Shown: piece by piece, positions 16,341 through 16,398 of the stretch
How the letters are laid out: every line of letters begins with the position of its first letter
How positions within the stretch are numbered: the first letter of the stretch is position 1
Source of the DNA: Escherichia coli
Lineage (GTDB): Bacteria; Pseudomonadota; Gammaproteobacteria; Enterobacterales; Enterobacteriaceae
Assembly: GCF_050920415.1 (NCBI RefSeq)
Contig: NZ_CP169309.1
DNA length: 64,000 nt
Strand: one strand, 5' to 3'
Translations under genes and position numbers: made by a program
Notes under the pieces: model-generated
Told to the model about the DNA's origin: nothing
What the model saw: only the letters and a program-made list of their open reading frames with translations
Database searches by the model: none

Positions 16341-16398
16341 GCCCGAGGTAATCTGAAAAAGGTGCAAAAGATTGCACCTTTTTCAGATTACCTCGGGC
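16341..16398. terminator. Perfect palindrome, probable bidirectional terminator between convergent yjcF and yjcE
   Basis: 27-bp arms gcccgaggtaatctgaaaaaggtgcaa / ttgcacctttttcagattacctcgggc with 4-nt loop; A/T runs flank the inner stem on both strands. Confidence 0.75.

Follow-up and report, generated by a model that had tools for sequence, protein, structure and literature searches.

A long perfect hairpin between the convergent yjcF and yjcE genes of Escherichia coli and its probable origin by template switching between the arms

In the 64-kb stretch of Escherichia coli DNA analysed here (the window), a perfect 58-base palindrome at positions 16341-16398 separates the convergent genes yjcF/espX5 and yjcE. 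The question raised by this locus is why the arms of a hairpin that resembles a terminator should pair perfectly over a much longer stretch than the terminator itself. We consider it probable that the element is the shared 3'-end hairpin of the two genes and that its perfect arms originated by quasi-palindrome template-switch mutagenesis, not by selection for a special function. The locus is best read as a natural and unusually complete record of a known mutational process, and not as a new kind of element. The features and the alleles on which this reading is based are collected in Table 1.

Table 1. Features of the yjcF-yjcE region, with positions in the window, and alleles of the palindrome among complete E. 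coli genomes
Feature	Position	Length	Strand	Description
yjcF/espX5	14959-16251		+	Pentapeptide-repeat protein; gene of the AT-rich island, with the hairpin at its 3' end
Left arm	16341-16367	27 nt		GCCCGAGGTAATCTGAAAAAGGTGCAA; departs from the K-12 allele at four sites
Putative template-switch tract	16348-16357			G16348, T16352 and AA16356-16357 perfect the arms; C, C and TT in K-12
Predicted terminator core	16356-16383	28 nt	both	A5-GGTGCAA-AAGA-TTGCACC-T5; from anatomy and TransTermHP-style scores
Loop	16368-16371			AAGA; read from the sequence
Right arm	16372-16398	27 nt		TTGCACCTTTTTCAGATTACCTCGGGC; identical in the window, K-12, I-type and EC43 alleles; rewritten in the J and M alleles
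Right-arm partner sites	16382-16391			TT at 16382-16383, A at 16387 and C at 16391 unchanged in the window; AA, G and G in the mirror alleles
Spacer between palindrome and yjcE stop	16399-16418	20 nt		Last bases of the yjcF island (alignment with B2 strain U12A)
yjcE	16419-18068		-	Na+/H+ antiporter; convergent gene; stop codon at 16419-16421 is the right edge of the variable cassette
Allele K (K-12, O157, E. coli W)				Left C, C, TT at 16348, 16352 and 16356-16357; right as window; 23/27 paired; ~3,559 genomes (~86% of carriers)
Allele D				Left C, C, TT; right G16386A; 22/27 paired; ~515 genomes
Allele I				Left C, C, AA; right as window; 25/27 paired; ~23 genomes
Window-type allele				Left G, T, AA; right as window; 27/27 paired; 17 exact and 2 single-site mutants, ~19 genomes
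Allele J				Left C, C, TT; right with inner TT>AA; 25/27 paired; at least 4 genomes
Allele M (mirror)				Left C, C, TT; right fully rewritten to AA, G, G; 27/27 paired; 8 genomes

The original prediction of an unusually long perfect palindrome, with 27-bp arms around a 4-nt loop, is borne out by the 100% complementarity of the arms over the whole of the 58 bases. It had also proposed that the folding energy be computed for both strands. The RNA is predicted to fold at -52.8 kcal/mol on the + strand and at -52.7 kcal/mol on the - strand, about -53 kcal/mol each, while shuffled versions of the palindrome fold at approximately -22 (+) and -19 (-) kcal/mol (z = -9.5 and -11.1), and none of the 200 shuffles was as stable. 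The palindrome is the longest inverted repeat of the window and the only one with 100% complementarity among the repeats of at least 14 nt; the remaining long inverted repeats are REP elements or short hairpins. No second copy of an arm was found in the window with up to three mismatches (expected count 0.00), and searches of complete E. coli genomes with megablast and blastn identified a single palindrome locus per genome.

With one locus per genome and one copy in the window, a dispersed repeat of the REP/BIME, ERIC or MITE type was rejected. Like REP and BIME elements, the palindrome is intergenic and situated at gene 3' ends, but the REPs are multi-copy elements with a shared consensus, whereas the palindrome is unique and unrelated to them in sequence. 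REP-type extragenic palindromes (CGCCTTATCCGGCCTACA / TGTAGGCCTGATAAG...) are located at 2037-2115, 47869-47916, 52097-52145 and 55308-55343, and make up the majority of the remaining long inverted repeats. A search of the palindrome against Rfam 15 gave no family at the gathering threshold; the best matches, at 40.9 and 40.2 bits where the thresholds are 90 and 67, were to eukaryotic microRNA-precursor models and reflect the generic hairpin shape only. A 45-aa open reading frame on the + strand that spans the palindrome (16335-16472) was taken as mechanical, with no support.

The inner part of the element has the anatomy of an intrinsic terminator in both directions. The core stem, GGTGCAA/TTGCACC, has 7 bp, four of which are G-C pairs, and is closed by the 4-nt loop. 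A consensus terminator scan flagged neither the window site nor the K-12 site, and we therefore scored the core with the published TransTermHP formulae. The window allele obtained a hairpin score of -9.9 on both strands (threshold -2), and its tail, TTTTTCAG on both strands, a score of -4.67 (threshold -2.5). The - strand tail in K-12, TTTAACAG, scores -3.58 and contains only three U on the yjcE side. The silence of the scan is explained by the extension of the stem through the T-run, which leaves no tail; this is a rule of the scan and not evidence against the anatomy. The layout, in which an A-tail precedes and a T-tail follows the stem, is typical of terminators that work on both strands, where the tails can pair with each other and lengthen the apparent stem (Kingsford et al. 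2007, PMC1852404). The palindrome begins 89 nt past the yjcF stop and ends 20 nt short of the yjcE stop, and the core is thus downstream of both convergent genes. The central sequence AAAGGTGCAA-AAGA-TTGCACCTTT is the same in 24 of the 25 sequences compared, the exception being the singleton R32_14_1F. Judging from this anatomy, position and invariance, the inner 28 nt most likely function as an intrinsic terminator in both directions. The resemblance to such a terminator noted in the original prediction thus held up in the hairpin and tail scores on both strands and in the near-constant core, and the outer approximately 17 bp are, as it had also remarked, in excess of what termination requires.

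Published transcript data from K-12 are consistent with some read-through at this site. Adams et al. (2021) reported Rho termination regions in K-12 MG1655 at 4281854 on the + strand, antisense to yjcF (score 6.7), and at 4281402 on the - strand, antisense to yjcE (score 5.4). These map to roughly 16100 and 16470 in the window, just past the hairpin on each strand, suggesting that the K-12 allele may leak. Rho appears to backstop transcription that crosses the K-12 hairpin or arises in the AT-rich island. No Term-seq 3' end labelled yjcE or yjcF is present in Supplementary file 1 of Adams et al., and neither gene is mentioned in the TERMITe supplements. The C at 16352 in K-type alleles and the A at 16386 in D-type alleles each give a C-A mismatch in the + strand RNA and a G-U wobble in the - strand (yjcE) RNA. 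The yjcE transcript accordingly keeps 24 of 27 pairs in the K and D alleles, although two cases are too few to exclude chance.

The gene order around the hairpin is actP (+), yjcF/espX5 (+), palindrome, yjcE (-) and ghxP (-). The original naming of the convergent pair was correct, as yjcF is annotated on the + strand and yjcE on the - strand in a RefSeq record whose sequence is that of the window. The yjcF stretch has a GC content of 27-38% between flanks of 50-58%, and yjcF is a known H-NS-bound locus. Approximately 1,300 of 5,426 complete E. coli genomes contain neither yjcF nor the palindrome. The B2 strain U12A, for example, has lrgAB-lysR in place of yjcF, and its homology to the window restarts exactly at the yjcE stop codon (16419). 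The original prediction had offered the boundary of the AT-rich yjcF insertion as one explanation of the palindrome. It does occupy the last 80 bp of the island, at its right edge, but it is not the border itself, since homology with strains that carry the other cassette resumes at the yjcE stop, 20 nt further to the right. The alternative cassette in U12A has its own, unrelated GC hairpin, GGTTGGCGGGCtcGCCCGCCAACC, located 12 nt past the yjcE stop. Either cassette brings a hairpin, and yjcE is thus always trailed by one.

Several further observations concern this segment. The region between actP and yjcE (14781-16418 in the window, 346-2500 in the U12A record) behaves as a replaceable cassette that contains yjcF/espX5 in approximately 4,100 genomes and lrgB-lrgA with a LysR regulator in approximately 1,300, including U12A. 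The lineage of the window has a private 14-bp insertion, CTCACGGACTTCTG, at 16298-16311, which occurs only once in the window. Divergence is unusually high at 16050-16340, where the last part of yjcF and the spacer behind it show 80-90% identity to K-12, as compared to approximately 95% elsewhere in yjcF and yjcE.

To follow the palindrome among strains, we counted its alleles in the 5,426 complete E. coli genomes, approximately 4,117 of which carry the element. The six alleles differ at the sites listed in Table 1. The common K-12 allele pairs 13 of the 17 outer positions, and approximately 99% of the carrier genomes have two to five mismatches in the outer stem. Eighteen of the window-type genomes form a distinct chromosomal lineage with at least 99% identity over 3.3 kb, and the next best genome shows 95.4% identity; many of these strains are also the nearest neighbours of the window in the adjacent soxSR-pdeC region. 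A search of GTDB species representatives with a degenerate DNA pattern gave no match to the palindrome, and for YjcF a locus search gave no relatives and a protein search gave only E. coli clusters. Ancestral states are therefore inferred within E. coli. In the original prediction, outer arms that are poorly conserved around a conserved inner terminator were held to imply a chance extension of the stem. This is essentially the pattern seen for the pairing, but chance extension does not follow from it, as the perfect forms are better explained by templated copying between the arms.

The evidence for such copying is provided by genomes that are nearly identical outside the palindrome. Strain EC43 has the perfect palindrome of the window without the flanks of its lineage: it lacks the 14-bp insertion and differs in the flank markers. 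Compared to E. coli W, EC43 shows the changes C>G, C>T and TT>AA in the left arm within 10 bp and no differences in the other 3,290 of 3,300 bp, and all four changed bases are the complement of the right arm. EC43 thus shows that a four-base change alone suffices for the window-type product to arise, or at least to be present, on a background of the K type. EC43 could instead have gained a patch of at most 116 bp from the window lineage.

The shorter change, TT>AA, is found on three distinct backgrounds, each with a commoner TT partner. Strain CFSAN061761 (AA) and APEC-O117H42 (TT) are identical over 3,300 bp apart from this dinucleotide (3 AA and 24 TT genomes), XJ34 (AA) differs from 100416 (TT) by the dinucleotide and two other sites, and for nine AA genomes of the ECCRA-119 group there are at least 31 partners with TT at a distance of two mismatches. 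A spread of TT>AA by recombination across the three backgrounds would require tracts of at most 149-215 bp.

Corrections of the opposite arm are also observed. The predicted mirror product, which consists of the K-12 left arm and its exact reverse complement as the right arm, was matched with 100% identity in eight genomes (allele M). Its inner-only form (allele J) is present in at least four genomes, and the two that were compared have different backgrounds. There is no donor for the right-arm sequences of M and J among the other alleles, and they must therefore have originated de novo, by copying of the left arm. The two directions meet in strains SC407 (allele J, right arm corrected) and 11PC (allele I, left arm corrected), which show five differences in 3,280 bp, four of which are the reciprocal sites of the palindrome.

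Across these alleles, the introduced bases are complementary to the opposite arm at 4/4 sites in EC43 and the window, 2/2 in I, 2/2 in J and 4/4 in M. The corrected tracts run outward from the inner stem without interruption in all cases, and no allele corrected solely in the outer stem was found among the sequences compared. At the K-12 locus, there is no other nearby template for the TT site. A model in which only the leading-strand arm is corrected is ruled out by the right-arm corrections in M and J; both arms are corrected in nature. [quoted passage not shown] We infer at least five events in the left arm and at least three in the right arm, a difference that is not significant.

These patterns suggest a mechanism that would act during replication. 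The outer 17 bp are part of a quasi-palindrome common to all yjcF-bearing E. coli, with four mismatches in the common allele (23/27 paired). The nascent strand may fold back on the inner stem, or pair across the fork, and copy the opposite arm instead of the true template before it returns to the latter, so that the mismatches in one arm would be overwritten by the complement of the other. A short tract would yield the TT>AA allele and a long tract the fully perfect allele, and the same process on the other arm would yield a second, different perfect palindrome. If the arms are overwritten in this manner, the extra pairing is a mutational by-product and not a selected protein site or RNA function. 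The palindrome in the window is the product in which the left arm is fully corrected, fixed in a rare lineage. Since this lineage is deep, the perfect state could have been inherited rather than newly made.

The depth of the window lineage, which has no intermediates, is also the starting point for an alternative in which the window-type and the mirror-type palindromes are both ancestral, and the K-12, I and J alleles are crossovers between them or the result of decay of a perfect ancestor. Each observed allele can be written as a mirror-type left part joined to a window-type right part at a single crossover point, and the states are unpolarised since the searches gave no outgroup. We consider this history unlikely, because the mirror type is located on ordinary K-class flanks, with 11 differences from K-12 in 1,340 bp, and the three mirror copies compared are all identical, as expected for a young tip and not for a deep allele. 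Furthermore, the imperfect K-12 type is in majority on every background, the I and J alleles would require crossovers within 3-bp windows (16353-16355 and 16384-16386) repeatedly and on several backgrounds, and the right flank of the K class is unlike that of the window lineage, with a divergence of 3.7% starting at 16437. The two perfect palindromes also differ by four fully compensated pairs, resembling covariation, which brings in the possibility that the long perfect hairpin is selected. In read-through RNA it might be cleaved by RNase III or stabilise the 3' end; it might also halt or slow converging polymerases, extrude as a cruciform or bind a dimeric protein. An RNA duplex of 27 bp would be of sufficient length for RNase III, and the palindrome has stayed perfect in 17 of 19 window-type genomes despite a flank divergence of up to 0.9%. 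Hairpins at convergent gene pairs are also known to position polymerase collisions (10.1101/2022.10.23.513370). Selection of this kind is nevertheless very unlikely. The mismatches in approximately 99% of the carriers are tolerated, the changes are single multi-base events on isogenic backgrounds and not stepwise compensations, and one mutation in the 58 bp across the window-type clade, at a flank divergence of up to 0.9%, is close to the neutral expectation. The window type has five U on both strands, whereas the mirror type has three on both (tail score -3.58 for the same TTTAACAG); with such opposite predicted effects on the U-tract, the two perfect forms have no common functional direction. 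No Rfam family matched above threshold, and no report of protein binding to the palindrome site was found; a SrsR gSELEX peak falls inside the yjcF open reading frame. The protein-binding palindrome suggested originally is thus not supported, given the mismatched majority and the two perfect versions with opposite U-tract effects. More generally, selection for pairing is neither needed nor supported: the mismatched allele is in majority, the U-tract effects are opposite and the mutation count is near-neutral.

The products of template switching could themselves be of use to the cell, and in one such reading the yjcF-yjcE hairpin is a recurrent template-switch hotspot whose products form a heritable switch that sets how much antisense transcription enters the H-NS-silenced effector gene yjcF and the end of yjcE. 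If this were true, the window-type and I alleles, with five U on both strands, would be predicted to terminate more tightly and the M and J alleles, with three U on both strands, to be leakier, the perfect forms would add a 27-bp duplex to read-through RNA, and the mutational mechanism would supply ready-made regulatory variants for selection. We regard this reading as improbable. An origin from outside, in which the palindrome is what remains of a mobile element, still serves as one of its ends, or is the site at which site-specific recombination brought in the yjcF cassette (an attC-like, MITE or REP-like element), would account for its location no more than 20 nt from the right border of the variable AT-rich cassette, in whose place approximately 1,300 genomes have lrgAB-lysR, and for the sharp shift in sequence divergence at the palindrome; IS1 has also landed in the loop in one strain. 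However, the palindrome is single-copy in every genome, its reported occurrence in two places being the two strands of one site, and the matches to plasmids are mislabelled pieces of chromosome. It is absent from the representative genomes of other species and unlike the REP copies of the same window, and the hairpin of the alternative cassette is unrelated. An integron attC site was rejected, as the flanks GTTAGCC (left) and GTTACGT (right) fit neither the GTTRRRY nor the RYYYAAC core. Such an origin is extremely improbable, and the suggestion that the palindrome might be a dedicated recombination site found no support in a single-copy element.

The preferred reading, in which template switching has perfected the arms, places the locus among known systems. 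Monttinen and Loytynoja (10.1101/2021.04.15.439925) reportedly found that RNA hairpins can be both created and maintained by template switches during DNA replication. Quasi-palindrome template switching is an established mechanism (PMC7202029, PMC5941160) that has been well studied with laboratory reporters. As in the quasi-palindrome hotspots described by the model of Ripley (1982), in E. coli thyA and in the lacZ QP5/QP6 reporters of the Lovett laboratory, a clustered multi-base change perfects an imperfect repeat, the new bases complement the other arm, and the events recur with either arm as template. Unlike the laboratory reporters, the yjcF-yjcE locus represents a natural polymorphism in an intergenic predicted terminator, spread over thousands of wild genomes and including both reciprocal full products and both partial products.

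For natural bacterial genomes, Lavi et al. (2018) argued statistically, from the conservation of orthologues, that perfect inverted repeats in proteobacteria are enriched and kept perfect by correction. In contrast to these statistics, single events are here read directly from pairs of genomes that are identical over 3.3 kb. The average arm of inverted repeats in non-coding regions of MG1655 is approximately 6 nt (Lavi et al. 2018), as compared to 27 nt here. As far as the template-switch origin of inverted repeats and RNA hairpins is outlined in Lavi et al. and in Monttinen and Loytynoja, the homogenisation of arms in a way that mimics compensatory evolution is also a shared property. The core is similar to the bidirectional terminators of Kingsford et al. 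(2007) in that a GC-containing stem is flanked by an A-run and a complementary T-run between two stops, which provides a hairpin and a U-tract on both strands, but the stem continues for 15 more perfectly paired bp beyond the A/T tails, and the U-tract on the yjcE side in K-12 has three U only. Overlapping bidirectional terminators between convergent genes have been described by Ju et al. (2019), as cited by Wang et al. (2022).

The locus is a clean natural record, in that it contains a common imperfect allele together with both partial and both reciprocal perfect products, several of which occur on backgrounds that are identical over 3.3 kb, so that individual events are directly readable. 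It also provides a caution for the inference of RNA structure, since the four apparently compensatory pairs that distinguish the two perfect alleles would score as strong covariation without any need for selection. For genome annotation, the lesson is that this striking palindrome is probably an ordinary terminator hairpin with a mutational embellishment.

A few minor observations were made on individual strains. The yjcF/espX5 gene has been damaged repeatedly, by insertions of IS1 or IS3, deletions, frameshifts and an internal stop, in strains that include LF3-1, Z226-5, PigCaeca_1, XJ34, 06_3044 and MB06233. The recurrence of such damage in different strains suggests that the gene is dispensable. 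Two records labelled DH5alpha, with a genome size of 4.83 Mb that is larger than that of K-12, carry the yjcF-yjcE haplotype of the E. coli W type and not that of K-12, and may be mislabelled. In strain L2_E1649, an IS1 copy interrupts the palindrome exactly at its loop (equivalent to 16364-16371 in the window; about 735 and 1500 in the L2_E1649 record) with an 8-bp target duplication, CAAAAGAT, and the two arms are consequently located approximately 770 bp apart.
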